Assembly (NCBI GenBank): GCA_964439265.1
Contig: CAYTOA010000012.1
Span: forward strand, 11,029-75,028
Direction: 5' to 3'
Length of the DNA: 64,000 bases
Source of the DNA: an uncultured Chitinophagaceae bacterium
GTDB taxonomy: Bacteria; Bacteroidota; Ignavibacteria; UBA10030; UBA8401
Shown here: piece by piece, positions 35,232 through 47,600 of the stretch
Layout of the letters: each line of letters begins with the position of its first letter
Numbering within the stretch: position 1 is the first letter of the stretch
Program-made: the position numbers and the translations under genes
The notes under the pieces: generated by a model
The model's input: the letters and a program-made list of their open reading frames with translations, nothing else
What the model was told of the DNA's origin: nothing
Databases searched by the model: none

Positions 35232-35304
35232 GGGCCGTTAGCTCAGCTGGGAGAGCGCGTGAATGGCATTCACGAGGTCAGCGGTTCGATCCCGCTACGG
35301 TCCA
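35232..35304 (+). tRNA. tRNA-Ala (anticodon GGC)
   Basis: Hand-folded cloverleaf: acceptor GGGCCGT/ACGGTCC with a G3:U70 pair, D-arm GCTC..GAGC, anticodon arm CGTGA-ATGGCAT-TCACG, T-arm AGCGG-TTCGATC-CCGCT. Confidence 0.9.
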
Positions 35305-35313
35305 CATCAAACG

Positions 35314-35346
35314 AAAAAAGGGAACAACATTGTTGTTCCCTTTTTT
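35314..35346. terminator. Bidirectional intrinsic terminator between convergent tRNA genes
   Basis: AAAAAA-GGGAACAAC-att-GTTGTTCCC-TTTTTT. A perfect 9-bp stem flanked by A and T runs. Confidence 0.8.
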
Positions 35347-35350
35347 ATTG

Positions 35351-35425
35351 TCGGGGCGGGGAGATTCGAACTCCCGACCTCTTGGTCCCGAACCAAGCGC
35401 TCTAGCCGGGCTGAGCCACGCCCCG
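35351..35425 (-). tRNA. tRNA-Pro (anticodon CGG)
   Basis: The reverse complement folds as CGGGGCG-TG-GCTC..GAGC-G-CTTGG-TTCGGGA-CCAAG-AGGTC-GGGAG-TTCGAAT-CTCCC-CGCCCCG-A. Confidence 0.9.
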
Positions 35426-35528: not shown

Positions 35529-35584
35529 TTGACAAATTCCTTCCGATAGTATATATTCCACTATAGTAAAAATATATACACTAT
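35529..35584 (+). promoter_or_regulatory. lexA promoter (TTGACA-17-TATATT) with overlapping ATAGT/ACTAT palindromes (candidate operator)
   Basis: -35 TTGACA at 35529-35534, a 17-nt spacer, and -10 TATATT at 35552-35557. ATAGT-N9-ACTAT spans 35546-35564 and ATAGT-N12-ACTAT spans 35563-35584. There is also an 8-bp inverted repeat GTATATAT/ATATATAC. Confidence 0.5.
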
Positions 35585-35599
35585 GTAAAGGATTTCACT

Positions 35600-36265
35600 A
35601 TGCCATCGCCATCGGTCGAACTCACCTCCCGTCAGCAAAAGGTCTATAACTTTGTGAAGCAGTTCATCGAGGACAACAGTTACCCTCCGACGCTGCAGGA
35701 AATTTCCGACAAGTTGAAGATCCAGCCGAGCGCCGCCCGGATGCACCTTCTTCTTATGGAAAAGAAGAAGGCGCTGCGGTACGTTCCGAACACTTCACGC
35801 GGCATCGAACTGCTGCATGAACGGCCGTCCGGCATTCCGATCTACGGAAGTGCGCCGGCAGGGCATCCGTTCACCTCTCAGGAAAACATGGTCGATACCT
35901 TCGAGGTCCGGCGCTACATTACTGCGTCCGACGATTTGTTCGGCATTTACGTCCGGGGCGACAGCATGAAGGATGCGCAGCTTTCTACCGGCGACCTGCT
36001 CTTCGTCGACCCCAAAAAGGACCCCCGTAACGGCGAGATCGTGGTCGCCGCCGTGGAAGGAGAGCCGACGATCAAACGGTATTATAGAGAAGAGAGCGGC
36101 GTGGTGCTTCGTCCGGAAAATAAGAAATACAAGCCGATTCACGTCAGCAGAAGCGACGAAAATTTCAAAGTACTCGGCGTTGTGGTCGGGATGATCCGCG
36201 CCCTCGACAAAAAGAAGATCGACGCGTTGACCGATGAATACAAAGCGTACTCAAAGGCATCGTGA
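35600..36265 (+). CDS. lexA: LexA repressor (S24 peptidase)
   Basis: N-terminal wHTH LTSRQQKVYNFVKQFIEDNSYPPTLQEISDKL. Cleavage region IPIYGSAPAGHPF. Catalytic GDSMKDA (Ser) and PTIKRYY (Lys). Confidence 0.9.
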   Translation: MPSPSVELTSRQQKVYNFVKQFIEDNSYPPTLQEISDKLKIQPSAARMHLLLMEKKKALRYVPNTSRGIELLHERPSGIPIYGSAPAGHPFTSQENMVDTFEVRRYITASDDLFGIYVRGDSMKDAQLSTGDLLFVDPKKDPRNGEIVVAAVEGEPTIKRYYREESGVVLRPENKKYKPIHVSRSDENFKVLGVVVGMIRALDKKKIDALTDEYKAYSKAS

Positions 36266-36279
36266 GGAACGAGGTGGCT

Positions 36280-36480
36280 ATGGCAACGTCGACATATTCG
36301 ATAGAAGAAGAACGGCAGATCAATTTTTATCTCAAACAGATCCTGGACCTGCTGAGCGTGCGCATTCCGGAAGACCATTTTGGGACGGTGGAGATCGCAT
36401 TCCCGCGCCAGAACGGCAAGATAGCCGGGGAAGTGGAGATAAAATTACGTTCGAAGCATCGGCGGGGAAAGGTCCAGTAA
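36280..36480 (+). CDS. Small protein, possibly DUF2292/YezD-like
   Basis: MATSTYSIEEERQINFYLKQILDLLSVRIPEDHFGTVEIAFPRQNGKIAGEVEIKLRSKHRRGKVQ. The FG(T/S)VEI...G.I...EIK..SKHR pattern resembles YezD-family proteins from memory. GAGGTGG lies upstream of ATG 36280. The ORF is open from GTG 36262, which overlaps the lexA stop. Confidence 0.45.
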   Translation: MATSTYSIEEERQINFYLKQILDLLSVRIPEDHFGTVEIAFPRQNGKIAGEVEIKLRSKHRRGKVQ

Positions 36481-36531
36481 CAGCCAACTGATCGCAAATT
36501 TTGTTATTGATAATTTTACGGACAGGAAACA

Positions 36532-36936
36532 ATGATGAACCGCGCAACAGGAACATTTGAAGTGAAGCTCAATCCTCAGAAACTGGCGGACGGTGCGGCG
36601 GACTCAACATTAGGGCGGCTGTCGATCGACAAGCAGTTTCACGGTGATCTTGAAGCTGTCAGCACGGGGGAGATGCTGAGTGCGGGAACGAGCGTTAAAG
36701 GGTCGGCCGGATATGTCGCGATTGAGCGGGTCAGCGGCACGCTGCAGGGGCGCAGCGGTGCTTTCGCGCTGCAGCATAGCGGCACCATGACACGCGGTGC
36801 TGCACAGCTGAGCGTTACCGTCGTGCCCGATTCCGGAACGGACCAGCTGGCCGGACTTGCCGGGCAGATGACAATCAATATCGTTGACGGGAAACATTTT
36901 TATGATTTCGATTACACGATCGCAGAAACCCATTGA
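36532..36936 (+). CDS. DUF3224-like protein
   Basis: 134 aa. ATGTFEVKLNPQ...LGRLSIDKQFHGDLEA.STGEML...GYVAIERVSGTLQGRSGAFALQHSG fits my recollection of DUF3224. Confidence 0.55.
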   Translation: MMNRATGTFEVKLNPQKLADGAADSTLGRLSIDKQFHGDLEAVSTGEMLSAGTSVKGSAGYVAIERVSGTLQGRSGAFALQHSGTMTRGAAQLSVTVVPDSGTDQLAGLAGQMTINIVDGKHFYDFDYTIAETH

Positions 36937-36945
36937 AGGACGCCG

Positions 36946-37272
36946 ATGAGAATGGAAACGACCGAAGAGTTATATAAAGAGCTGCTGTCGCTTCTGAAAA
37001 AAGTCGGGACATTTGAAACCGAGCAGAAGAAAGAATCTATCCATATCGTGAACGGCAGGGCGTTTGTGGGCGTCCACCCAAAAAAGAGTTACCTGGGAGT
37101 GAATATCGTTCTTGAAAAAGGCGAGAGTCTGCTCAAGGCTGATAAGATTGAACAGGTTTCCGCTCGCCGGTTTCATCATTTTTTTAAGATAACATCGAAA
37201 CGGCAGATGAATAAACCGTTTGTCCGGCTGCTGCACGAGGCCTATCAACTCACAAACCTCACGGAGAAATAA
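36946..37272 (+). CDS. Small conserved hypothetical (DUF5655-like)
   Basis: 108 aa. ...KKESIHIVNGRAFVGVHPKKSYLGVNIVLEK... pattern. The family assignment is tentative. Confidence 0.45.
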   Translation: MRMETTEELYKELLSLLKKVGTFETEQKKESIHIVNGRAFVGVHPKKSYLGVNIVLEKGESLLKADKIEQVSARRFHHFFKITSKRQMNKPFVRLLHEAYQLTNLTEK

Positions 37273-37276
37273 TATC

Positions 37277-37708
37277 ATGGCAAAGCATCCTCTCCTTTTG
37301 CGAAAGACGCTGAGCATCAAGGCTCCGGCGTCGAAAGTGTGGGAAGCGTTGACGTCCCCGGAATGGATCAAGCAATACCTGTTTGGCACGAAGGTGATCT
37401 CCGACTGGAAAGCGGGAAGCCCGATTCGTTTCACTGGGACGTGGGAAGGAAAAGAATACGAAGACAAAGGAACGATCCTGAAATTCGAAAAAGGGAAGGT
37501 TTTCCAATACAGCTATTGGAGTTCCTTTTCATCGACGCCCGACATTCCGGAAAACTATGCCGTCCTGACATTCGAGCTCTCATCGCATGGCGATAAGACC
37601 GAGCTTTTGCTGACTCAGGACAATATTGCCAGCGAAGCGGAGCTGGAACATTCCAGCAAGAATTGGGAAGGAGTATTGGGAGCGATGAAAAAGCTGATTG
37701 AAAAATGA
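37277..37708 (+). CDS. SRPBCC-superfamily protein (AHSA1/START-like)
   Basis: LRKTLSIKAPASKVWEALTSPEWIKQYLFGT...GKEYEDKGTILKFEKGKVFQYSYWS is typical of Aha1-domain/SRPBCC proteins. ATG at 37277. Confidence 0.7.
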   Translation: MAKHPLLLRKTLSIKAPASKVWEALTSPEWIKQYLFGTKVISDWKAGSPIRFTGTWEGKEYEDKGTILKFEKGKVFQYSYWSSFSSTPDIPENYAVLTFELSSHGDKTELLLTQDNIASEAELEHSSKNWEGVLGAMKKLIEK

Positions 37709-37837
37709 AGCGCGGTCGGAGATCCCTGAATTATTAGTTGCGACATTGATTATGAAAAGAATAAAGCATAAGAGGTCAAAAAGCTTTTATGACGTGATGC
37801 CAGATGGTGCGGTTCTTTCCCTTTTAAAACAAATCCG

Positions 37838-38080
37838 TTGGAAGAAAAGCTGAAGAGTTTTTTAGAGGGACGCAAGCGTTACAATGGTGAGATTTATGAG
37901 TTCGTTCTGAAGTGTGGCTTTTTGCCAAAGCATGCCAATGAAGTTTTTTTCAATTGGCAAAACAAGGATATATTAATTGTGGAAACTGATAAAGGAGAAA
38001 AAGCGCGGAAACGTGCATTCTACATAGCGTATAAATACTATCACGATGACAGCAAAAAAGTTAAATTCGAATTAAGGTAA
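37838..38080 (+). CDS. Hypothetical 80-aa ORF abutting the DUF5131 gene (possible remnant of a partner gene)
   Basis: TTG start, with the stop 1 nt before the DUF5131 ATG. A 33-codon ORF (37752-37853) in another frame overlaps its 5' end, which would be compatible with a frameshifted or truncated gene. AT-rich like its neighbour. Confidence 0.35.
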   Translation: MEEKLKSFLEGRKRYNGEIYEFVLKCGFLPKHANEVFFNWQNKDILIVETDKGEKARKRAFYIAYKYYHDDSKKVKFELR

Positions 38081-38081
38081 T

Positions 38082-38807
38082 ATGGCACAGTCAAGCATTG
38101 AATGGACTGAGATGACGTGGAACCCGACAACCGGGTGTTCCAAAATCTCCGCTGGATGCAAATTTTGCTATGCCGAGATCATGTCTCGTCGGTTGCAAGG
38201 GATGGGCATTGAAAAGTATAAAGATGGATTTGCTGTAAGAATGCATCCGGACGCATTAAGGATTCCATACTCTTGGAAAACATCAAAAATTGTTTTTGTT
38301 AATTCGATGAGTGATTTATTCCATGAAAACATTCCTTTAGAGTTTATTCAACGGGTTTTTGATGTGATGAATGACAATCCGCAGCATGTTTTTCAGATAC
38401 TCACGAAAAGAGCTGAGAGACTTTTAAAGCTTCATTCAGGACTGAAATGGACGCACAATATTTGGATGGGGGTTTCCGTTGAGAACGACAAAGTGAAGCA
38501 CCGGATCGACTTATTACGGAAGACAAAGGCAAAGGTGAAATTCCTTTCCTGCGAGCCTCTTATTGGACCGCTTTACGATATGAATCTAAAGAAACTAGAT
38601 TGGGTGATTGTCGGCGGTGAAAGCGGGCATCGGCCGCGGCCAATGGAAACGGATTGGGTTTTGGATATTCAGGGGCAATGTAAAAAAGCCGATGTCGCTT
38701 TCTTTTTTAAACAATGGGGTGGAAGAAATAAAAAGAAAAATGGCAGGCTTCTTAACGGCCAGACGTATGATGAGATGCCTGAAATGATGGAATTAGAAAA
38801 GGAATAA
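38082..38807 (+). CDS. Phage Gp37/Gp68-family protein (DUF5131), three-Cys motif
   Basis: MAQSSIEWTEMTWNPTTGCSKISAGCKFCYAE (IEWT..TWNP..GC..S.GC..CYA signature), ...VFVNSMSDLFHE..., FLSCEPLIGP, WVIVGGESG, FFFKQWGG. Confidence 0.8.
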   Translation: MAQSSIEWTEMTWNPTTGCSKISAGCKFCYAEIMSRRLQGMGIEKYKDGFAVRMHPDALRIPYSWKTSKIVFVNSMSDLFHENIPLEFIQRVFDVMNDNPQHVFQILTKRAERLLKLHSGLKWTHNIWMGVSVENDKVKHRIDLLRKTKAKVKFLSCEPLIGPLYDMNLKKLDWVIVGGESGHRPRPMETDWVLDIQGQCKKADVAFFFKQWGGRNKKKNGRLLNGQTYDEMPEMMELEKE

Positions 38808-38811
38808 TTCG

Positions 38812-39294
38812 ATGAAAATATTCAGGATGCCGATTTTATCTGTTCTTACGCTTTGCCTCTTTGGTTTTCTTAGCTTTACACTGTATGCCCAGGACTCATT
38901 ACATTCCACAACAAAGGGATCAGCCGTGACAGTCTCAAACAACAATCTTCGCATCGATTATATAGAGTTTTCCGCCGTCGATATTGCAGCGGTAAGGAAT
39001 TTTTACTCGGCCGTTTTTGGTTGGCAATTTACCGACTACGGGCCCGACTACACGAGTTTCGAGGATGGCCGGATCAGCGGAGGGTTCGCGAAGGCGCCAT
39101 CGGTCTCCGGCAGCGGCGTGCTCGTGGTGATCTATTCGTCCGAACTGGAAAAAACGAAAGATGCTGTCGTTCGCAACGGCGGGAAAATAACGAAACCGCC
39201 GTTCAATTTCCCCGGCGGTTGGCGTTTTCACTTTACCGACCCGAGTGGAAATGAGCTTGCTGTATGGAGTGAGAATAACGGCGTCAAAAAATAG
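38812..39294 (+). CDS. Secreted VOC (glyoxalase/bleomycin-resistance fold) family protein
   Basis: Signal-like N-terminus MKIFRMPILSVLTLCLFGFLSFTLYAQ. IDYIEFSAVDIAAVRNFYSAVFGWQFTDYGPDY...FHFTDPSGNELAVWS. Confidence 0.7.
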   Translation: MKIFRMPILSVLTLCLFGFLSFTLYAQDSLHSTTKGSAVTVSNNNLRIDYIEFSAVDIAAVRNFYSAVFGWQFTDYGPDYTSFEDGRISGGFAKAPSVSGSGVLVVIYSSELEKTKDAVVRNGGKITKPPFNFPGGWRFHFTDPSGNELAVWSENNGVKK

Positions 39295-39410
39295 TCTCAC
39301 GCAAAGCTGCCAAGGCGCAAAATGCATTGCAAATAAAATTTGCGCGGCTTTGCGACTGGCGAAGCCATCATCCTGGGGAGTCCTTCGGACCTTCGGGAAT
39401 TGCGCGAGAC
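39294..39410. repeat. REP/MITE-like palindromic element (CGCAAAG family), copy C, most complete
   Basis: Termini GTCTCACGCAA ... TTGCGCGAGAC are inverted repeats. Internal pair CGCAAAGCTGCCAAGGCGCAAA / TTTGCGCGGCTTTGCG, plus a GTCCTTCGGAC mini-hairpin. Confidence 0.65.
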
Positions 39411-39636
39411 AAGTGTTCTTGATTTTCCAGAGGTCTACATAATAAGTATATGACTTAGTTTTTGTCTGTTTCCTTTTGTGCTTCTTCGTGTCCTTCGTGG
39501 ATCGCCCGGTAAGAAGAATGTAACGACATAGCAACAGGGTTGTTGAAATACTCAAGCCCGGTTTTGTGAAGAGCGCCGTCATGCGTTCTCTCGAAACCGG
39601 GTTTTTTGTTTGTCTTCATCTCACAAGGAGGCTGCA

Positions 39637-40560
39637 ATGATTACACTGGACCAGCAAAAAATTTTTGTGGGGATGGGGGGCTGGGATTTGCCCCCATTCC
39701 ATCAATACTTCTACCCGCCAAAGCCGAAGAAGGGGTTTCGGAAACTGGAATTCTACGGCCAGTTTTTCGACAGCGTGGAAATCAACGTCACGTTTTACAA
39801 TACGGCTCTTACGGCCGACCACGCTCGCCGCTGGCTCAGTGACGTTGCTGCGAATAGGAATTTCATGTTCACGGTAAAACTGTATCGCGGGTTCACGCAC
39901 ACTTTTGATGCGACGAACGACGACGTCCGTTCTGTCCGGCGCCTTCTTGAGCCGATTGCCGAAGCGGGAAAACTGGGAGGCATCGTGGCACAGTTTCCGC
40001 AGTCGTTCGTCAACACGTCCGAGCGTCAGCAATATCTCCGGCAGTTCAGCAGGGTCTTTTACCCGCACCGCGTGTTTGTCGAGGTGCGGCACGCTTCGTG
40101 GAATGATCCCGCCGTCTTCAACCTTTTGCAGGAGAACAACCTGCACCTTGTGAACGTCGACTTGCCGCCGGTATGGAATTCAATGCCGTTGACGTCGATG
40201 GCGTGGAATAACGTTGCCTATTTCCGGATGATGGGGAGGAATGTTAAAACGTGGAATCATCCTGAGCTGGGGGAGCGGTACGACTATTATTACAACGAGA
40301 AAGAGCTTGCCGATCTGCTGGAACGAATGAAGAAATTGCGGGGACAATCGAACACCCTTTTTGTCGTATTCCATAACGACCCGGAAGCAAACTCGCTTGT
40401 CAACGGTTTTCAGCTCCGGCATCTCGTGCGAAAGCCCCCGGTGCTTGTTCCGCGGGGAATGATCCGGGCATTCCCCGAACTCAAAGGAATCAGCTCATCG
40501 GTGAACGTGCTGCACCCCCTCTTTGCGGAAGAGGAAATTCCTGTGGTTGAACGCCGTTGA
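39637..40560 (+). CDS. DUF72 (YecE-like) protein
   Basis: IFVGMGGWDLPPFHQYFYPPKPKKGFRKLEFYGQFFDSVEINVTFY matches the DUF72 N-terminal signature. AAGGAGG sits 5 nt (CTGCA) upstream of ATG 39637. Confidence 0.8.
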   Translation: MITLDQQKIFVGMGGWDLPPFHQYFYPPKPKKGFRKLEFYGQFFDSVEINVTFYNTALTADHARRWLSDVAANRNFMFTVKLYRGFTHTFDATNDDVRSVRRLLEPIAEAGKLGGIVAQFPQSFVNTSERQQYLRQFSRVFYPHRVFVEVRHASWNDPAVFNLLQENNLHLVNVDLPPVWNSMPLTSMAWNNVAYFRMMGRNVKTWNHPELGERYDYYYNEKELADLLERMKKLRGQSNTLFVVFHNDPEANSLVNGFQLRHLVRKPPVLVPRGMIRAFPELKGISSSVNVLHPLFAEEEIPVVERR

Positions 40561-40567
40561 AACGCGT

Positions 40568-41293
40568 CTATTTTTTCTTCAGAGGCTCTACGCATTCCGG
40601 CACGTCGTTGCGGGAGGGACTGACGACGGTGGAAACGCGGTATGCTTTCATCTTTGCGGCGGGATAGGGGAGGAGGAATTTTTTGAGGGACGCGGTATCT
40701 TTGAACGCTCTGTCCAGCCACTGCTCAAAATGCTTCTCGGGGAGGATGACCGGCATGCGGTCGTGGATATCTCCCACGAGCTCATTGGGAACGGTGGTGA
40801 TGATCGTGTAGGAAGGAAATTCTTTCCCTTCGGAATCTTTCCAGACGGAAAAGAGGCCGGCAAACATGAACGGCGATTCGTCTTTCATGCGGATGCACAT
40901 CGGCTGTTTTTCGATGACCTGCCGTTCTGCGCCGCGGATCTCTTTGGTGACTGCCGTCTTTTTCCACTCATAAAATCCGTCGGCGGGAATAAGACAACGG
41001 CTTCCTTTGAAATAGGTAGTGTAGAGTTTGCTCTGGTCCAGCGTTTCCGCCTTTGCATTGAACGTTGAAAACGCGACCTTGCCGTCTTTCGACCAGTGGG
41101 GGACGAGTCCCCAGCGCATCTGTTCTGCGGCGAGAGCGTCGTTCCTGACGGCAAACACAGGCATCCGTTGAAGCGGGGAGACGTTGTACCGGGGCAATTC
41201 CTCGAAAACTTTGCCCGCGGTTTTAAGACCCTGCAGCAGTGCAAATGTCGCAAAGACTTTTTTGCCGTCGATCAGGACATAACGTCCGCACAT
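40568..41293 (-). CDS. SOS-response-associated peptidase (SRAP / YedK-like abasic-site processing protein)
   Basis: Starts MCGRYVL (catalytic Cys2), then ...RYNVSPLQRMPV..., WGLVPHWSKD, ...NAKAETL..., DGFYEWKK, ...DRMPVIL. The ATG at MCGRY is chosen over the longer track ORF. Confidence 0.85.
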   Translation of the reverse strand: MCGRYVLIDGKKVFATFALLQGLKTAGKVFEELPRYNVSPLQRMPVFAVRNDALAAEQMRWGLVPHWSKDGKVAFSTFNAKAETLDQSKLYTTYFKGSRCLIPADGFYEWKKTAVTKEIRGAERQVIEKQPMCIRMKDESPFMFAGLFSVWKDSEGKEFPSYTIITTVPNELVGDIHDRMPVILPEKHFEQWLDRAFKDTASLKKFLLPYPAAKMKAYRVSTVVSPSRNDVPECVEPLKKK

Positions 41294-41332
41294 CGTTGTT
41301 GTCTCCGTAATAGTCGAGAAGAAGTTAGAAAA

Positions 41333-42055
41333 ATGGCCCCAAAAAATCCACTGCTGGCAGTGCCAACGTCGTATCAGGCCCTGGCACGGCATTTTGCCGC
41401 ACCTGCCGGCAAGACCTATCTATTGTATGGAGACAAACCGATCTTCCTGCTCTCGCTGAAAATGGCCGCGTACGGCATCACCGGCGGCTCTTCCGTTGCC
41501 GTCGTCGACGGCTGCAACAGGTTCAACGTTCATTTCCTTTCTCAGTTTGCGCGGGAAAGGAAACTGAACATCGACGATTTTCTCCACCATATTTTCGTTT
41601 CGCGCGGCTTTACCTGTTACCAGATGGAACAGGCGATCGTTCACCGGCTCCCGTTGTTTCTCGGCACGATCCATTCGCGCACAGCGATGATCTTCGGCCT
41701 CCTCGACACGTTCTACGACCAGCAGGCATCGTTACGGGAAGTCCGGCAGATCCTCGGCCGGGTCGTCGCCGCTCTTCAGGAAATGAAATCAGACGGGATC
41801 TCCGTGCTCCTTGTGTGCAGAAAACTGAATGTGCTGCCGAAAGAACGGAACGAGTTGTTCACAACATTGCAGGCAGGCGTCGATACGATCTACCGATTGC
41901 AAGCGGATGACGCCGGGCTGAAACTTTTTCTTGAGAAAGGAGTGCTCGACGATGGGACGAACAGTGCCGACCTTCACGAACATTATCAACGACGAGATCG
42001 CAAGCTGGTCGAAGTATCGCCGCGGTCTTCGAAAAGACGACCAGGAGCTTTTTGA
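41333..42055 (+). CDS. RecA-fold protein with degenerate Walker A (ImuA/KaiC-like by layout)
   Basis: GKTYLLYGDKPIFLLSLKMAAYGITGGSSVAVVDGCNRF occupies the strand-P-loop-helix position of RecA-like proteins but lacks GxxxxGK[ST]. TAMIFGLLDTFYD resembles Walker B and ISVLLVCR resembles a following strand. ATG at 41333 is 39 bp from the SRAP start. Confidence 0.5.
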   Translation: MAPKNPLLAVPTSYQALARHFAAPAGKTYLLYGDKPIFLLSLKMAAYGITGGSSVAVVDGCNRFNVHFLSQFARERKLNIDDFLHHIFVSRGFTCYQMEQAIVHRLPLFLGTIHSRTAMIFGLLDTFYDQQASLREVRQILGRVVAALQEMKSDGISVLLVCRKLNVLPKERNELFTTLQAGVDTIYRLQADDAGLKLFLEKGVLDDGTNSADLHEHYQRRDRKLVEVSPRSSKRRPGAF

Positions 42056-42233
42056 CGATATCTTCCGCGCGGCCAAGCTGCACCTGGCGGAGAATTTTTA
42101 CGCCATGCGTTCGATCCCGTTCGAAAGCATCGCCATCTCGATCGCCGTCGAACAGCGGAAATTGATCAAGCGCCTTCACGAACGTATTCTTCAGCTGGAA
42201 GAGCGGCTCGCAGTTTCACATGACGGTCAATAA
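41952..42233 (+). CDS. Hypothetical 93-aa protein, middle gene of the PolB cassette
   Basis: MGRTVPTFTNIINDEIASWSKYRRGLRKDDQELFDDIFRAAKLHLAENFY... AAAGGAG lies 9 nt upstream of the ATG. Overlaps the preceding gene by 104 nt in another frame. Helical by composition; no family recognised. Confidence 0.5.
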   Translation: MGRTVPTFTNIINDEIASWSKYRRGLRKDDQELFDDIFRAAKLHLAENFYAMRSIPFESIAISIAVEQRKLIKRLHERILQLEERLAVSHDGQ

Positions 42234-42241
42234 GGAGCGAC

Positions 42242-44530
42242 ATGCATACCACGGTGAACGGCTGGTTGTTCGACCTGTACCCATCGCCGAAAGGCATCAC
42301 GCTGTGGCTCATCGACCGGAGCGGGACGAAACATTGTTGTTTCCGCAGGTACCGTCCGTCGTTTTTTCTCCATGTAAACGATTCCGACGCGAAGCGCGCT
42401 GCTGCGCTCGGTGCCCGCTCACCGGTCGAAGTGTCGCTGGGGCGCACGACGAAAAAGGAAATCTATTCCGGCGACCCGTGGGATGTCGTGCAGGTGTACG
42501 TTCACGATACGACGCGCTTCAAGGAAGCGGTATGGTATTTCGAGCGGTTCTTCCCTCATTTCGCGTTCTATAATTCCGACATTCTTGTTGCTCAATTATT
42601 CTTGTATGAGACGAAGCTTTTTCCGCTGGCGCTTGGTGATTACGAGATCGATGAAACGGGAGAAGTGACCGGCTGGAACATCACCGATTCCCGCGAGGCG
42701 TTGGAGTACGACCTGCCGCCGCTCTCCGTGATGTCGATCCGCAATGCGAACGACTTTGTTCCGCCCAAATACCATACGACCTTCCAGCTTGAGATCTCGT
42801 ACGACGATGCGACGTATGCACTCGAACAGCAGGACCCGGTCGAAGTGGTCGAGGCGCTCAACTGGCACCTCCATCGCTGCGACCCGGATGTGCTTCTTAC
42901 CGAGTACGGAGACTCGCAGCTGATGCCGGTGATTGCAAGGCTGTCGGAACAGCACCATATTCCGTCGCTCCTGAACCGCGACCATACCGTCGGCTACACG
43001 ACGATGAAGGAATCGAGTTTCTTCCAGTATGGAAAGGTCGTTCACAAAGACGGCGCATTCGAACTCGCAGGGCGCTGGCATATCGATGTCGATAATTCCT
43101 TTACCGTCGCAATGTCGGAACTGGACGGCCTTTTCGAGATGGCGCGCCTGACCCAGACGCCTGCGCAGCGGCAGGGGCGGGCGAGCATCGGCACGTCGAT
43201 GTCGTCGCTGCAGCTTTCATGGGCCTATCAGAACAATATCTTGATCCCGTCGAAGAAGCGTGAACCGGAAGAATTCAAGTCGGCGGCGACGCTGCTGCTC
43301 GCAGACCGGGGCGGATTGATCTTTAACCCGCCGCTCGGTTTCCACGAGGATATCGCCGAGCTTGATTTCGTTTCAATGTATCCCACGATCATGGTGGAGA
43401 AGAACGTTTCCCCGGAGACAGTGAATTGCCGATGCTGCAAGAATACAAAAGTACCGGAACTGGAATATACGATCTGCGAGAAACGGGAGGGGATCATTCC
43501 CGCAACGCTCCGCACCGTCGTCAAGAAACGGGCGTACTATAAGGCGATGAAGAAGAAATACAAAAGAAAGGACGAAGCCCTTTTTCGCCGGTACGACGCA
43601 CGGCAAAATGCCCTTAAATGGATGCTGGTGAGCTGCTTCGGATATCTCGGCTATAAGAATGCCCGTTTTGGGAGGATCGAAGCGCACGAATCGGTCAATG
43701 CATTTTCCCGCGATGCGATCCTGGCGGCAAAAGAGATCGCGGAGACGAACGGTTTTGAAATGCTTCATGCGATCATCGACTGCATGTGGCTGAAGAAAAA
43801 AGGGGCGACAGAAATGGATTACCAGGCACTCTGCCGGACGATCACGGAAAATGTCGGTATCGATATCTCAATCGAGGGGATCTATCGCTGGATACTCTTT
43901 CCGGCGTCGAAACAAGATCCGGAGATCACGACCGCGAACCGATACGTCGGATGGTATCAGACGGGAGAGATGAAAATGCGGGGCATTGAATCGCGCCGGC
44001 ATGATACGCCGAAATTTATCAAAACGATGCAATCGGCGATGCTGGAGAAGATGGGGGAGGCGCACAGGGTGGAGGAGTTGCGTGCGATGCTTCCCGATCT
44101 GCTCGAAATTGTCCGTGAATATCTTTCACTCTTGCGCAGCGGAAAGGCGAATCCGATGGAGCTTGTGCTTCGCCGTCATATTACCAAAGAGGCGGAAGAA
44201 TACACGAATAACAGCATCAGCGCCGTTGTCTCAAAGCTTGTGGAAAGCATGGGCGTCCATCTCTCTGCCGGCGAATCGATCGAGTTCATCATTCTCGATC
44301 AATCGGGCAAACAGAAGCCGGAAAAAGCAAAGCCGCTGGCGTTGTATGCATTCGAAGACGGCTACGATATCGAAACATACACCGGATTTACATTGAAGGC
44401 AGCGGCAACGCTGCTGGAACCATTTGGATATTCCTTCGAAGCGCTCGAGAAACACTTTACCATCAGTCAAAAGAAGCCCCGCAATACCGTCCGAAACGAT
44501 GAAGCCACCCTGGAACTGGAGTTCATGTGA
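42242..44530 (+). CDS. Family-B DNA polymerase with degenerate 3'-5' exonuclease motifs
   Basis: Motif A ELDFVSMYPTIM, motif B LKWMLVSCFGYLGY, motif C position MLHAIIDCMW, and KxY-like MKMRGIESRRHDTP. The N-terminus GWLFDLYPSPKGITLWLIDRSG...RPSFFLHV is like archaeal/Pol II-type PolB. The Exo I/II/III consensus residues are not found. AGGAG lies 5 nt upstream of the ATG. Confidence 0.8.
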   Translation: MHTTVNGWLFDLYPSPKGITLWLIDRSGTKHCCFRRYRPSFFLHVNDSDAKRAAALGARSPVEVSLGRTTKKEIYSGDPWDVVQVYVHDTTRFKEAVWYFERFFPHFAFYNSDILVAQLFLYETKLFPLALGDYEIDETGEVTGWNITDSREALEYDLPPLSVMSIRNANDFVPPKYHTTFQLEISYDDATYALEQQDPVEVVEALNWHLHRCDPDVLLTEYGDSQLMPVIARLSEQHHIPSLLNRDHTVGYTTMKESSFFQYGKVVHKDGAFELAGRWHIDVDNSFTVAMSELDGLFEMARLTQTPAQRQGRASIGTSMSSLQLSWAYQNNILIPSKKREPEEFKSAATLLLADRGGLIFNPPLGFHEDIAELDFVSMYPTIMVEKNVSPETVNCRCCKNTKVPELEYTICEKREGIIPATLRTVVKKRAYYKAMKKKYKRKDEALFRRYDARQNALKWMLVSCFGYLGYKNARFGRIEAHESVNAFSRDAILAAKEIAETNGFEMLHAIIDCMWLKKKGATEMDYQALCRTITENVGIDISIEGIYRWILFPASKQDPEITTANRYVGWYQTGEMKMRGIESRRHDTPKFIKTMQSAMLEKMGEAHRVEELRAMLPDLLEIVREYLSLLRSGKANPMELVLRRHITKEAEEYTNNSISAVVSKLVESMGVHLSAGESIEFIILDQSGKQKPEKAKPLALYAFEDGYDIETYTGFTLKAAATLLEPFGYSFEALEKHFTISQKKPRNTVRNDEATLELEFM

Positions 44531-44635
44531 GAATGGATTTGAAGTATGCGGGGAAAATGCGTATAATCAACTGGTGCAGGGGATCCTTAAAGCAGTATGT
44601 AGTCATCAACCGGCCAATTCGCGAAACCATTACAC

Positions 44636-47600
44636 ATGAACGTTGCCCCGCTGTTCATTCGATGCACCTCTTTTCCATCACTCCACCACACATCCGGCGA
44701 CCGCGCTCCTCAATGTGAATTTCACATCCTCGCAGATATAAGAGACAAATACGAGTTTGACGAATCCCTCTTTGCCGCCAACGGCAACGTCATCTTTCCG
44801 AATTTTCATGCCGCAAGGATTTTTGCGAAGAAGTTGAACGACGCACGCGATCTCGCTCGGTTCCCGGAACGGGGAGTAAGGGCCGGACAGTTGAACGCGC
44901 TGGGGTTGATCGACGAGATCTATCATTACATCCTGCGGGTGTATGAAGAGACTGCCAATCCGGGCGTCTTCGGGCGCGCGCACGGTTATCTGAAAACGAA
45001 TCTTGGCGAGGATGGACTCCAAACAACGATCGATTCATTCGTCTCACTCTTTCCGCCGCTGAAGGTCTACAGGAAAGAATCACCGGCGACAGAATACCTG
45101 GCCGGAATAACAGAGGGACGGTCAAACCAGCACATCACAATCGAAGAATTGATACTGTTGTATTTGACAAATTTCAATCCTGCCGCCTCGAAGTTCGACG
45201 AGTTATTTTCCGACAAAACACTTGCTGAGAAAACGAAATACCAGGCACTCATCAACACGCTGGAAAATTTTTTCAGAACTGAAAGAACATTCGGTCCGGA
45301 GAACCAATTCATTTTCGATCTGCTGCGTGCTCCCATTCTTGCCCATCCCGACAGCCTCGAGGCTCAGCTGGGATACATCAAATCAAAATGGGGGATGCTC
45401 CTTTCATCAAAATTCCTGGACAGAATTCTCGGAAGCCTGGACTTGCTTGACGAGGAGAACAAGGTCGTGATTGGCGGAGGCGCTCAGGCCGTTGTTCCTT
45501 CATACGACGCTGCCGGCTCTCCCGGCGAACGCTCATACGGCTCTTTTGAGGCTGAGCGTTTCACCTCGGACCTGGAGTGGATGCCGAAGGTTGTGCTTCT
45601 CGCAAAAAACACCTACGTATGGCTGGATCAACTTTCGAAAAAATATCACCGCTCGATTACCAAGCTGAACGAAATCCCCGACGAAGAATTGGACCAGCTG
45701 GCCAGATGGAATTTCACCGGCTTGTGGCTGATCGGTTTGTGGGAGCGGAGCAATGCGTCCAGAAAGATCAAGCAGTGGACCGGAAATCCCGAAGCAGTGC
45801 CTTCGGCGTATTCTCTCTATGATTACGAGATTGCGCAGGACATCGGGGGCGAGGAAGCGTTTCAAAACTTGAGCAGCCGCGCATGGCAGCGCGGAATTCG
45901 TCTTGCAGGAGACATGGTGCCGAACCACATGGGGATCTATTCGAAATGGATTATCGAGCATCCTGAATATTTTATCCAATCGGAGTATTGTCCCTTCCCA
46001 AATTATCGTTTTTCCGGCGGAGACCTTTCGGAGAACCAGGACGTTCAACTTCGTATTGAAGACGGCTATTGGTCGAAAAAAGACGCGGCCGTTGTTTTCC
46101 AAAGAATTGACAATCGGACCGGAAGAACGACCTACGTCTACCACGGAAATGACGGGACGAATATGCCGTGGAACGACACCGCGCAATTGGATCTGCTCCG
46201 CGCAGACGTGCGGGAAGCGGTCATCCAGACGATCTTCCATGTCGCCCGGAAATTCTCGATCATCAGGTTCGACGCAGCAATGACGCTCACCAAAAAGCAT
46301 TTTCAGCGGCTCTGGTATCCACAACCCGGAACAGGAGGGGACATCCCATCCCGCGCGGATCATGCATTAAGCAAAGAAGAATTTGACAAATTATTCCCGA
46401 GTGAATTCTGGCGGGACGTCGTCGACCGGATCAACCAGTACATGCCGAGTACGTTGCTCCTGGCGGAAGCATTCTGGCTGATGGAAGGATATTTTGTCCG
46501 CACGCTCGGCATGCACCGTGTCTACAACAGCGCTTTCATGCACATGCTGATGAAGGAAGAAAATGAAAAATATCATCAGCTCCTGAAAAATACCCTGGCG
46601 TTCAACCCGGAGATCCTGAAACGGTACGTCAATTTCATGAGCAATCCGGACGAACAGACGGCCATCGCACAATTCGGAAAAGACGATAAGTATTTCGGCA
46701 TTGTGTTGATGATGGTAACGCTACCCGGTCTTCCGATGTTTGGCCACGGCCAGATCGAGGGATATACGGAAAAGTACGGGATGGAATACAAACGGGCCTA
46801 TTACGACGAGTACCCGGACGGCCAGCTGGTCCTGCGTCACGAGCACGAGGTATTTCCGATCATGAAGAGAAGGCACCTCTTCAGCGATGTCAAGAATTTT
46901 GAAGTGTATGATTTTCAGGATTCGCGCGGACACGTCAATCAGAACGTGTTTGCATATTCCAACATGTCCGGCGGCGAGCGGGCGCTGATCTTTTTCCACA
47001 ACAAGTTTCAGGAATGCAAGGGTCGGATCAGGATGGCAGCGCTGAAATCAACCGCCGAAGGAGGGGAGAGAAGGAGTGAAGAGCGGTCGCTCGGCCAGGC
47101 GTTAGCGATAAACTACGGCGATAATTATTTCTATGTTTTCAAAGACTATAAGTCGGACCTGGAGTATATCCGCACTGGAAAGGAAATTCACGACCAGGGG
47201 ATGTACGCAGAACTGAGAGCCTTTGAATACCATATCTTTTTAGACTTTAGGGAAATTTACGATGACGGCGGAGATTACCATGCCATCGCCCGAAAACTGC
47301 ATGGCGGAGGCGTTCAAAGTATCGGCTGCCTCCTTGTGGAAATGCGTCAGGCACCGATCCATGAGGCCGTAATAGCCCTTCTTTCTGAAGAGATTGTTAC
47401 TACATTTAAGGCTCATTCCCTGCGCACAGCCAGAACTGCAGCGAAGGCGATTCAGATCGGAGAAATCCAGCTTCGGTTCGAGTCATTTTCGAACGAAGTT
47501 AAAAAGCATACCAGATCGAGCGCAGATCTCAAAGCCATCGGATCGATGTTCCTGCACGACATTGAAGCGGCAGGTGCAATCTGGCGGATCCTGCAGCCCG

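Follow-up and report, generated by a model that had tools for sequence, protein, structure and literature searches.

Does a family-B DNA polymerase gene that follows directly upon genes for a RecA-fold protein and a small open reading frame (ORF), with an SRAP gene divergent from all three, represent a bacterial translesion system of a new kind? This question is raised by positions 40568-44530 of a 64,000-nucleotide stretch of DNA from an uncultured Chitinophagaceae bacterium placed by GTDB in the Ignavibacteria (NCBI GenBank assembly GCA_964439265.1, contig CAYTOA010000012.1, positions 11,029 to 75,028 of the forward strand), the whole of which is referred to here as the window. The original prediction regarded the cassette as a damage-tolerance module analogous to ImuA-ImuB-DnaE2, in which a family-B polymerase takes the error-prone role, and knew of no characterised bacterial system with such a layout. 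The analysis described here indicates that the three co-directional genes very probably constitute the bacterial PolB2 mutasome operon already catalogued in the literature, iRadA-PPB2-PolB2 of group 1a with a polymerase of group G2, because the gene identities, the motifs, the gene order and entries in a published supplement all match. Indeed, the PolB2 mutasome and its neighbourhood of lexA, SRAP and DUF72 genes are already known, this bacterial lineage included. The genes and motifs of the operon are as follows:

41333-42055, plus strand: iRadA (gene 1), 240 amino acids; predicted inactive Rad51/RadA-type protein without P-loop and without N-terminal domain
41936-41942, plus strand: Shine-Dalgarno sequence AAAGGAG of PPB2, sited within the iRadA frame, 9 nt from the PPB2 ATG
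41952-42233, plus strand: PPB2 (gene 2; arCOG07300 / Pfam DUF8156), 93 amino acids; predicted small three-helix partner with an MGRT arm
42242-44530, plus strand: PolB2 (gene 3; bacterial group G2), 762 amino acids; family-B DNA polymerase with a predicted dead exonuclease domain
43274-43309, plus strand: FKSA (FxxA) and D355-R356 of PolB2; predicted contacts with iRadA and the PPB2 arm
43364-43384, plus strand: PolB2 motif A, DFVSMYP; catalytic Asp375 kept
43772-43780, plus strand: PolB2 motif C, I511-I512-D513 in place of DTD; first Asp gone, second present
44507-44524, plus strand: C-terminal TLELEF of PolB2; candidate beta-clamp-binding motif

The layout itself is sound. The coordinates and strands of the SRAP gene and genes 1-3, the 39-bp gap between SRAP and iRadA (41294-41332), the 104-nt overlap of iRadA with PPB2 (41952-42055, PPB2 being in the +1 frame) and the 9-nt spacing of AAAGGAG all agree with both the ORF list and the raw sequence. 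The PolB2 ATG lies 8 nt past the PPB2 stop, and the AGGAG at 42233-42237 precedes it by 4 nt and not, as had been stated, by 5 nt. Homologues are numerous for all three genes (433 for gene 1, 495 for gene 2 and thousands for gene 3), and families of this size mean that the genes are real and not chance ORFs. Four contigs are identical to the window (L001-L004), and in their stored gene calls iRadA is skipped in favour of an 84-amino-acid antisense ORF (41420-41674, minus strand); automated annotation can therefore overlook iRadA.

The polymerase is the most readily placed of the three products. DNA_pol_B was the sole Pfam domain found in it (residues 322-708, E=6e-36), and no Pfam match to the exonuclease domain (PF03104) was obtained at E<=1. 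Leu stands at the position of the Exo II Asp in the alignment, and there is no DxE in the conserved block LPPLSVMSIRN, which was placed by eye with no alignment to an active enzyme. The description of the gene as 'exonuclease-less' thus agrees with the Pfam result and with the Asp to Leu change, but goes too far in that the domain itself is retained in a catalytically dead form. The best NCBIfam matches were the archaeal-type 'type B polymerase' models NF004416/NF004418 (E about 1e-117), and the Pol II models scored between E=5e-17 and E=1e-4. Among solved structures the nearest relatives were euryarchaeal PolBs from Pyrococcus and Thermococcus (E=1e-51), with a far weaker match to S. solfataricus DNA polymerase I (1s5j, E=7.7e-31) and no Pol II chains at E<=1e-20. 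We take the euryarchaeal enzymes to be of the PolB3 group and 1s5j to be a PolB1.

When aligned to P. abyssi PolB, motif C of the window polymerase presents IID at the position of DTD, and the same IID is found in 32 of 33 PolB2 orthologues. In an exhaustive search of the family, the 150 best representatives were full-length relatives of 32-70% identity, and motif statistics were drawn from 114 aligned representatives. The first motif C position is non-Asp in at least 111 of these, this being the number carried by the eight commonest variants, and Asp375 of motif A, the Lys of motif B and Asp513, the second Asp of motif C, do not vary in the alignments. The block KKREPEEFKSAATLLLADRGG, which includes the FKSA and DR region, is nearly invariant across the 33 orthologues. 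In the window protein F345-K-S-A348 precedes D355-R356, and both are invariant among the orthologues; most of the 114 representatives have FK[ST]A at the FxxA position, and the position corresponding to D355-R356 is DK in 58 of them and DR in 50. The window protein ends in ...ATLELEFM, where relatives have QELPLF, KQIPLF or QMPLF. Taken together, these sequence features match gene 3 to the PolB2 polymerases of bacterial group G2, with a predicted dead exonuclease. An E. coli Pol II-type PolB, considered as another identity for this gene, was ruled out by the lost exonuclease motifs and by IID in place of DTD.

The wider family has further features of its own. Organism names were obtained for two of ten PolB2-family clusters looked up, and these were Anaerolineae and Deltaproteobacteria. 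Many distant members (P0366, P0403, P0408, P0411, P0417 and others) are about 1250 amino acids long and match in two stretches that part at query residue 466, which lies within motif B; this pattern suggests intein insertions at that site.

Gene 1 was addressed with profile and structure-based approaches. None of its 433 homologues carries a Pfam domain, and for gene 1 itself neither Pfam nor NCBIfam gave a match to ImuA at E<=1. However, a profile built from 34 iRadA orthologues matched the ATPase domain of P. furiosus RadA (E=2.3e-4), and RadA/Rad51 proteins made up 16 of the 19 matches listed for the family profile at E<=10. The AlphaFold2 model has a mean predicted local distance difference test score (pLDDT) of 76.7 and a predicted template-modelling score (pTM) of 0.74; residues 207-240, the part overlapping PPB2, fall below a pLDDT of 50 and are predicted to be disordered. 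All of the top 50 Foldseek matches of this model in the PDB were Rad51, Dmc1, RadA or Rad51 paralogs (E about 1e-9), and bacterial RecA was not among them. The RecA fold originally proposed for the 240-amino-acid protein is therefore upheld by the predicted structure, and narrowed to the Rad51/RadA type.

The same model points to loss of the ATPase site. Only three residues (D-K-P) separate strand 28-33 from helix 37-50, and this spacer is too short for GxxxxGK[ST], so that no P-loop can be present. The Walker B position reads IFGL, where RadA has IVDS, a comparison that goes beyond the end of the profile alignment. Moreover, the RecA-type core begins at about residue 10 of 240, which leaves no room for the RadA N-terminal domain. 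The C-terminal tail (...SSKRRPGAF), predicted to be disordered, contains no clamp-binding motif. On the modelled fold, gene 1 is iRadA, with a Rad51/RadA-type core that lacks the ATPase residues.

The identity of gene 2 and the arrangement of the operon were examined across related genomes. One genome per species was taken, which gave 80 loci (L005-L084), almost all from metagenome-assembled genomes (MAGs) of Ignavibacteriota and Bacteroidota. The N-terminus of the gene 2 product, MGRTVPTFTNII (MGRTVPTFT), is nearly invariant in 32 homologues, and 65 of 66 related loci have MGRT as the start. PF26485 is annotated on all 120 listed homologues (of 495). The model comprises helices at residues 8-23, 28-48 and 57-91 with a free N-terminal arm, and its monomer pTM of 0.40 is low, as expected of an obligate oligomer. 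Gene 2 is accordingly recognised as PPB2, a protein of about 90 amino acids with three predicted helices and an MGRT arm. DUF5494 was rejected as an assignment, being a sub-threshold match in the local Pfam scan, whereas PF26485 came from precomputed annotations.

The overlap of iRadA with PPB2 is a recurrent feature. Among the 66 loci that have both genes the frames overlap in 41, by at least 50 nt in 35 and typically by 83, 104 or 107 nt, and PPB2 is in the +1 frame relative to iRadA in 39 of the 41. The Shine-Dalgarno sequence AAAGGAG of PPB2 encodes the conserved 'KG' of the iRadA tail; the seeming conservation of that tail (KG..GT..) arises because the PPB2 Shine-Dalgarno sequence and the MGRT codons lie there. 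Synonymous codon entropy of PPB2 was 0.99 within the overlap and 1.15 outside it, with values of 1.30 and 1.25 in loci that lack an overlap, a comparison confounded by the choice of loci. Fusions of iRadA with PPB2 that contain internal Shine-Dalgarno sites have been reported (PMC11791011), and the window arrangement is one indel away from such a fusion.

The order of the three genes is strongly conserved. In 64 of the 67 loci with more than 1.5 kb of sequence upstream of PolB2, iRadA, PPB2 and PolB2 follow one another on one strand; this survey bears out the expectation that orthologous PolB genes would be syntenic with the RecA-fold and small genes. The exceptions are L016 and L050, which have neither partner in the vicinity, and L011, whose contig ends before the place where iRadA would lie. 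At L016:7953-10310 and L010:884-3118 lie PolB2 orthologues, 72-74% identical, for which no iRadA or PPB2 was found in the 8 kb searched upstream in L016 and the mere 883 nt available in L010. These may represent stand-alone PolB2 copies, and both keep a palindrome-bearing promoter, described below, directly upstream.

The identities, motifs and gene order described above are those of a system that has been defined in steps. Makarova (2014) described an operon of inactivated RadA, arCOG07300 and PolB2, with lexA, in bacteria, the polymerase family being originally termed inactivated PolB (PMC4104785). Kazlauskas (2020) set apart the bacterial enzymes as group G2, a branch within archaeal B2, with ExoI not conserved, ExoIII missing and a single Asp in motif C (PMC7544198). 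The operon was acquired by bacteria from archaea. Timinskas, Timinskas and Venclovas (2025) then modelled a mutasome of PolB2, iRadA and a PPB2 trimer (PMC11791011), in which iRadA is a RadA homologue that has neither an ATPase site nor an N-terminal domain, and PPB2 (the former arCOG07300) has three helices and a conserved MGRT arm. In that study the bacterial gene order is always iRadA-PPB2-PolB2, the enriched neighbours are lexA, SRAP and DUF72, S. islandicus PolB2 has 401-IID-403 together with a D(K/R) motif, the loop before D(K/R) mimics the Rad51 oligomerisation motif, and a clamp motif is carried by PolB2 or by iRadA but seldom by both (PMC11791011). The lack of such a motif in the window iRadA, alongside a clamp-like one on PolB2, fits this one-or-other pattern and leaves membership unaffected.

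The supplement of the same study lists operons from Ignavibacteriales and Bacteroidota MAGs in the group '1a (iRadA-PPB2-PolB2)', with DUF72, LexA or SRAP as neighbours; one Bacteroidota PolB2 in it ends in QLSLF (PMC11791011). The motif C string of the window, HAIIDCMWL (IID at 511-513), is closely paralleled by HAIIDCVWL (IID at 513) in a supplement entry. A 2026 survey of bacterial polymerases gives the same description of PolB2 again (PMC12926913). The layout is therefore not a new one, the system having been described in 2014, 2020 and 2025 (PMC4104785, PMC7544198, PMC11791011). Set against group 1a, the window shares the gene order, iRadA, the MGRT arm, IID, D(K/R), FxxA, the dead exonuclease, the clamp motif on a single partner and the lexA, SRAP and DUF72 neighbours. 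Nothing essential differs, and the details particular to the window are its 104-nt overlap, a degenerate TLELEF and the lack of a LexA-type operator.

A mechanism for the complex can be drawn from this published work, the gene identities, folds, motifs and synteny being those obtained here. PolB2 would act as an exonuclease-dead polymerase that retains Asp in motif A and the second of the two Asp residues in motif C, and would pair with one ATPase-dead iRadA through FKSA 345-348, mimicking Rad51 oligomerisation. A PPB2 trimer would join them, with one MGRT arm inserted between PolB2 and iRadA, near D355-R356 and the DNA, and the C-terminal TLELEF of PolB2 may recruit the whole to the beta-clamp. 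The complex would then carry out error-prone translesion synthesis, chiefly by extending mismatched or lesion-opposed primer ends, an activity demonstrated for Sulfolobus Dpo2. Both the stoichiometry and the contacts of the complex rest on AlphaFold models only (PMC11791011), and the work of that study together with papers it cites describes S. islandicus PolB2 as an active translesion polymerase needed for targeted mutagenesis.

Several observations weigh against assigning the cassette to a working mutasome of this kind. No experimental study of any bacterial PolB2 complex was found in the literature, and PolB2 activity, mutagenesis and damage induction are established for Sulfolobus Dpo2 only. 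No damage-responsive operator was found for the window copy, and what looks like a terminator hairpin parts the lexA cluster from DUF72. In addition, the candidate clamp motif TLELEF is a degenerate form of the QxLPLF of relatives.

Comparison with other systems places the window operon more closely. The archaeal S. islandicus PolB2/Dpo2 has the three gene families, IID (401-IID-403) and D(K/R) in common with it, and is experimentally a damage-induced, error-prone extender polymerase. The archaeal system differs in its PCNA motifs, its more variable gene orders and its Orc1/Cdc6-type rather than LexA regulation; moreover, the S. islandicus PolB2 would be shorter and its exonuclease more decayed, judging from the position of motif C at 401-403 as against 511-513 in the window. 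E. coli Pol V (UmuD'2C-RecA) has the same architecture of a polymerase, a RecA-family protein and a small oligomeric subunit. Its polymerase binds the RecA-family protein by a mimic of the oligomerisation motif, the N-terminal arm of its small subunit reaches the active site, and the beta-clamp is used, all of which have likewise been proposed for PolB2. However, Pol V is a Y-family enzyme that uses active cellular RecA and not a dedicated inactive paralog, its UmuD' is unrelated to PPB2, and its control by LexA is proven. E. coli Pol II is also a damage-inducible family-B extender with a C-terminal beta-clamp motif, but, unlike the window PolB2, it works as one subunit, its 3'-5' exonuclease is active and its DTD is intact.

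These comparisons bear on the view that the cassette is a divergent member of the ImuA-ImuB-DnaE2 family, for which the chance is now negligible. The resemblance is general and loose: a RecA fold with a degenerate ATPase, an accessory protein and a non-proofreading polymerase, in an SOS context. There is no homologous component, since ImuA is RecA/SulA-like, ImuB an inactive Y-family protein and DnaE2 a family C polymerase, whereas gene 1 is related to RadA/Rad51, gene 2 encodes a 93-amino-acid helical protein and no Y-family ImuB, and gene 3 is of family B. For the cassette, neither Pfam nor NCBIfam gave a hit at E<=1 to ImuA or to a polymerase of the Y or C family. Membership is refuted by this lack of homology, and a loose analogy remains. 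The idea of a damage-tolerance module with a PolB in the error-prone role thus stands, and equals what the literature proposes, but its model was a distant one, Pol V and Pol zeta, the analogues named in the literature, being closer. A second alternative concerns the size of the unit. The system might comprise four or five genes, with SRAP and perhaps DUF72 obligatory and the PolB2 complex specialised for bypass of, or extension beyond, the DNA-protein crosslink that SRAP would form at abasic sites in single-stranded DNA. SRAP lies 39 bp from iRadA across a gap that is strongly conserved in the closest relatives, and the end of DUF72 is 7 bp from the SRAP stop. Yet among the 51 loci with more than 5 kb of upstream sequence, a divergent SRAP lies upstream of iRadA in only 10 and DUF72 in 15, the core trio is kept without them in most genomes, and the close relative L005 is without SRAP but has the rest, DUF72 leading directly into iRadA. 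We regard this larger unit as unlikely, and SRAP, which the original prediction had counted as part of the module, is better seen with DUF72 as accessory than as core because a minority of loci have them.

It is decidedly improbable that the polymerase is catalytically dead and that the complex has a structural or regulatory role at stalled forks. The first motif C Asp has become Ile, the exonuclease residues are gone and the family was first described as inactivated (PMC4104785); against this, Asp375, the motif B Lys and Asp513 are invariant, and the S. islandicus PolB2, which also has IID, is an active translesion polymerase (PMC11791011). Still less credence can be given to the idea that the cassette serves to replicate a mobile element or prophage, or that it is an anti-phage defence system. 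PHROGs families of unknown function do match iRadA (E=4e-9) and PPB2 (E=1e-11), and two tRNA genes lie just upstream of lexA. However, neither an integrase nor Cas1 nor terminal repeats came to light, and GC content over 39-45 kb is not unusual. Many MAGs, complete chromosomes among them, share this chromosomal context, and there is no PADLOC family match except to the model for intein-bearing PolB. A degenerate motif C and a dead exonuclease also fit badly with a replicase. The reading of the operon as an iRadA-PPB2-PolB2 mutasome of group 1a is therefore retained in what follows.

The neighbouring genes and elements from which the setting and control of this operon can be judged are the following:

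40568-41293, minus strand: SRAP gene, N-terminus MCGRY; YedK/HMCES family; divergent accessory neighbour
39637-40560, plus strand: DUF72 gene; TIM barrel related to UV-damage endonuclease; PF01904 on identical contigs; accessory neighbour
39515-39618, plus strand: leader before DUF72; small hairpin, 22-bp hairpin and T-run; terminator/attenuator-like
35600-36265, plus strand: lexA, canonical; LexA_DNA_bind and Peptidase_S24; 5.7 kb upstream, same strand as the operon
35563-35584, plus strand: lexA promoter palindrome ATAGTAAAAATATATACACTAT; perfect, 22 bp

The SRAP product matches PF02586 over residues 1-225 (E=1e-63) and has the Cys2 nucleophile. The DUF72 and SRAP stops face each other at the 7-bp distance given above, and DUF72, which the original prediction left unmentioned, heads a co-directional cluster in many relatives. 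Besides SRAP and DUF72, the 51 loci carry a canonical LexA in 5 cases and another S24-type protein in 24. SRAP, which shields abasic sites in single-stranded DNA, DUF72, a UVDE-like TIM barrel, and lexA are loosely linked accessory genes, and they point to a DNA-damage context.

The lexA promoter reads TTGACA-17-TATATT and is followed by ATAGTAAAAATATATACACTAT, both being conserved in five related loci. No second copy of ATAGTAAAAATATATACACTAT at 0-1 mismatch was found elsewhere in the window, and a search of the window for ATAGT-N12-ACTAT with up to two mismatches gave 9 matches against 11.3 expected, which is chance level, with none in 39400-44800. Across all loci, matches to the lexA palindrome at up to one mismatch fall at lexA promoters, with scattered 1-mismatch matches elsewhere. 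Inverted-repeat scans found no operator-like dyad in the 39-bp gap, which contains the SRAP ribosome-binding site, or in the DUF72 upstream region, and a scan of 39400-44800 gave no convincing sigma-70 promoter before iRadA. The early caveat that the gap holds no copy of the lexA-promoter palindrome is thus confirmed, with lexA at 35600-36265 and no copy near the cassette.

A different picture emerged from the relatives. A promoter with an embedded palindrome, cTTGACAaga-CGACAAAAATGTCG-TATnnT, is present in 42 of the 80 loci and is absent from the window; over the 80 loci, 48 such boxes were observed (for example L025:6900-6965), where chance would give 1.1. The box stands 46-160 bp ahead of the gene that heads the co-directional cluster, whether iRadA, DUF72 or another, and in L010 and L016 immediately ahead of PolB2. 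It differs from both operator motifs described for Bacteroidetes regulators, GGA-N5-TCC and CTAA-N5-TTAG (PMC8565304). Divergent from the operon at L025:5694-6380 (minus strand) lies a gene for a 228-amino-acid protein that joins a helix-turn-helix (HTH) domain of XRE/CI-like type to an S24 peptidase, in the manner of CI or a non-canonical LexA. This protein is likely to be the repressor for the palindrome of the relatives, and ACGACAAAAATGTCGT is a candidate target sequence for it. A second, imperfect box, ACGACATAAATGTCAT, occurs at L025:6825-6840 and faces minus-strand genes. Control of the operon family by a repressor is thus well supported; the box is missing from the clade to which the window belongs.

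The region just upstream of the DUF72 ribosome-binding site, at 39515-39618, contains a small hairpin, AGCAACAGGGTTGTTG, and a 22-bp hairpin at 39554-39612. Conservation of this leader extends from L005-L009 to the distant L067 and L068, and RNAalifold predicts 29 pairs, 5 of them with compensatory changes. An Rfam scan of 35-45 kb found two tRNAs only and no family for the leader. A related leader, 'ATAG..CAA..GTTGCTGTCAAG', follows the palindrome promoter in other loci. The DUF72 leader could be an attenuator, or just the terminator of the upstream cluster, and a terminator-like hairpin at this position argues against plain read-through from the lexA promoter. It has also been considered that the window lineage rewired control of the mutasome, with attenuation or antitermination in the leader before DUF72, perhaps together with a +1 frameshift that yields an iRadA-PPB2 fusion, in place of operator repression. 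The loss of the relatives' box, the presence of a LexA with a different box, the leader and terminator, the antisense SRAP and the 104-nt overlap form the basis of this proposal, to which we attach a low probability.

The stretch between lexA and DUF72 (35600-40560) is occupied by tightly packed genes called on the plus strand, the sole exception being a doubtful 54-amino-acid minus-strand ORF. Their order is lexA, a 66-amino-acid ORF, DUF3224, DUF5655, AHSA1, a winged helix-turn-helix protein, DUF5131, a glyoxalase/bleomycin-resistance-type protein and DUF72. In L067 and L068 lexA adjoins DUF72, and the seven intervening genes therefore look inserted; GC content falls to 0.41-0.45 at 37-39 kb. 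Just upstream of the lexA promoter, at 35232-35425, a plus-strand gene for tRNA-Ala (GGC) and a minus-strand gene for tRNA-Pro (CGG) are placed back to back, with a palindromic terminator-like sequence between them at 35314-35346.

Overall, what the window adds to the iRadA-PPB2-PolB2 system is of practical value: a compact operon with clear motifs (MGRT, FKSA, DR, IID and a clamp-like C-terminal peptide) that makes a reasonable candidate for biochemical reconstitution. Beyond this, the promoter-operator of the relatives and the DUF72 leader could help to define how error-prone polymerases are silenced in Ignavibacteriota and Bacteroidota.

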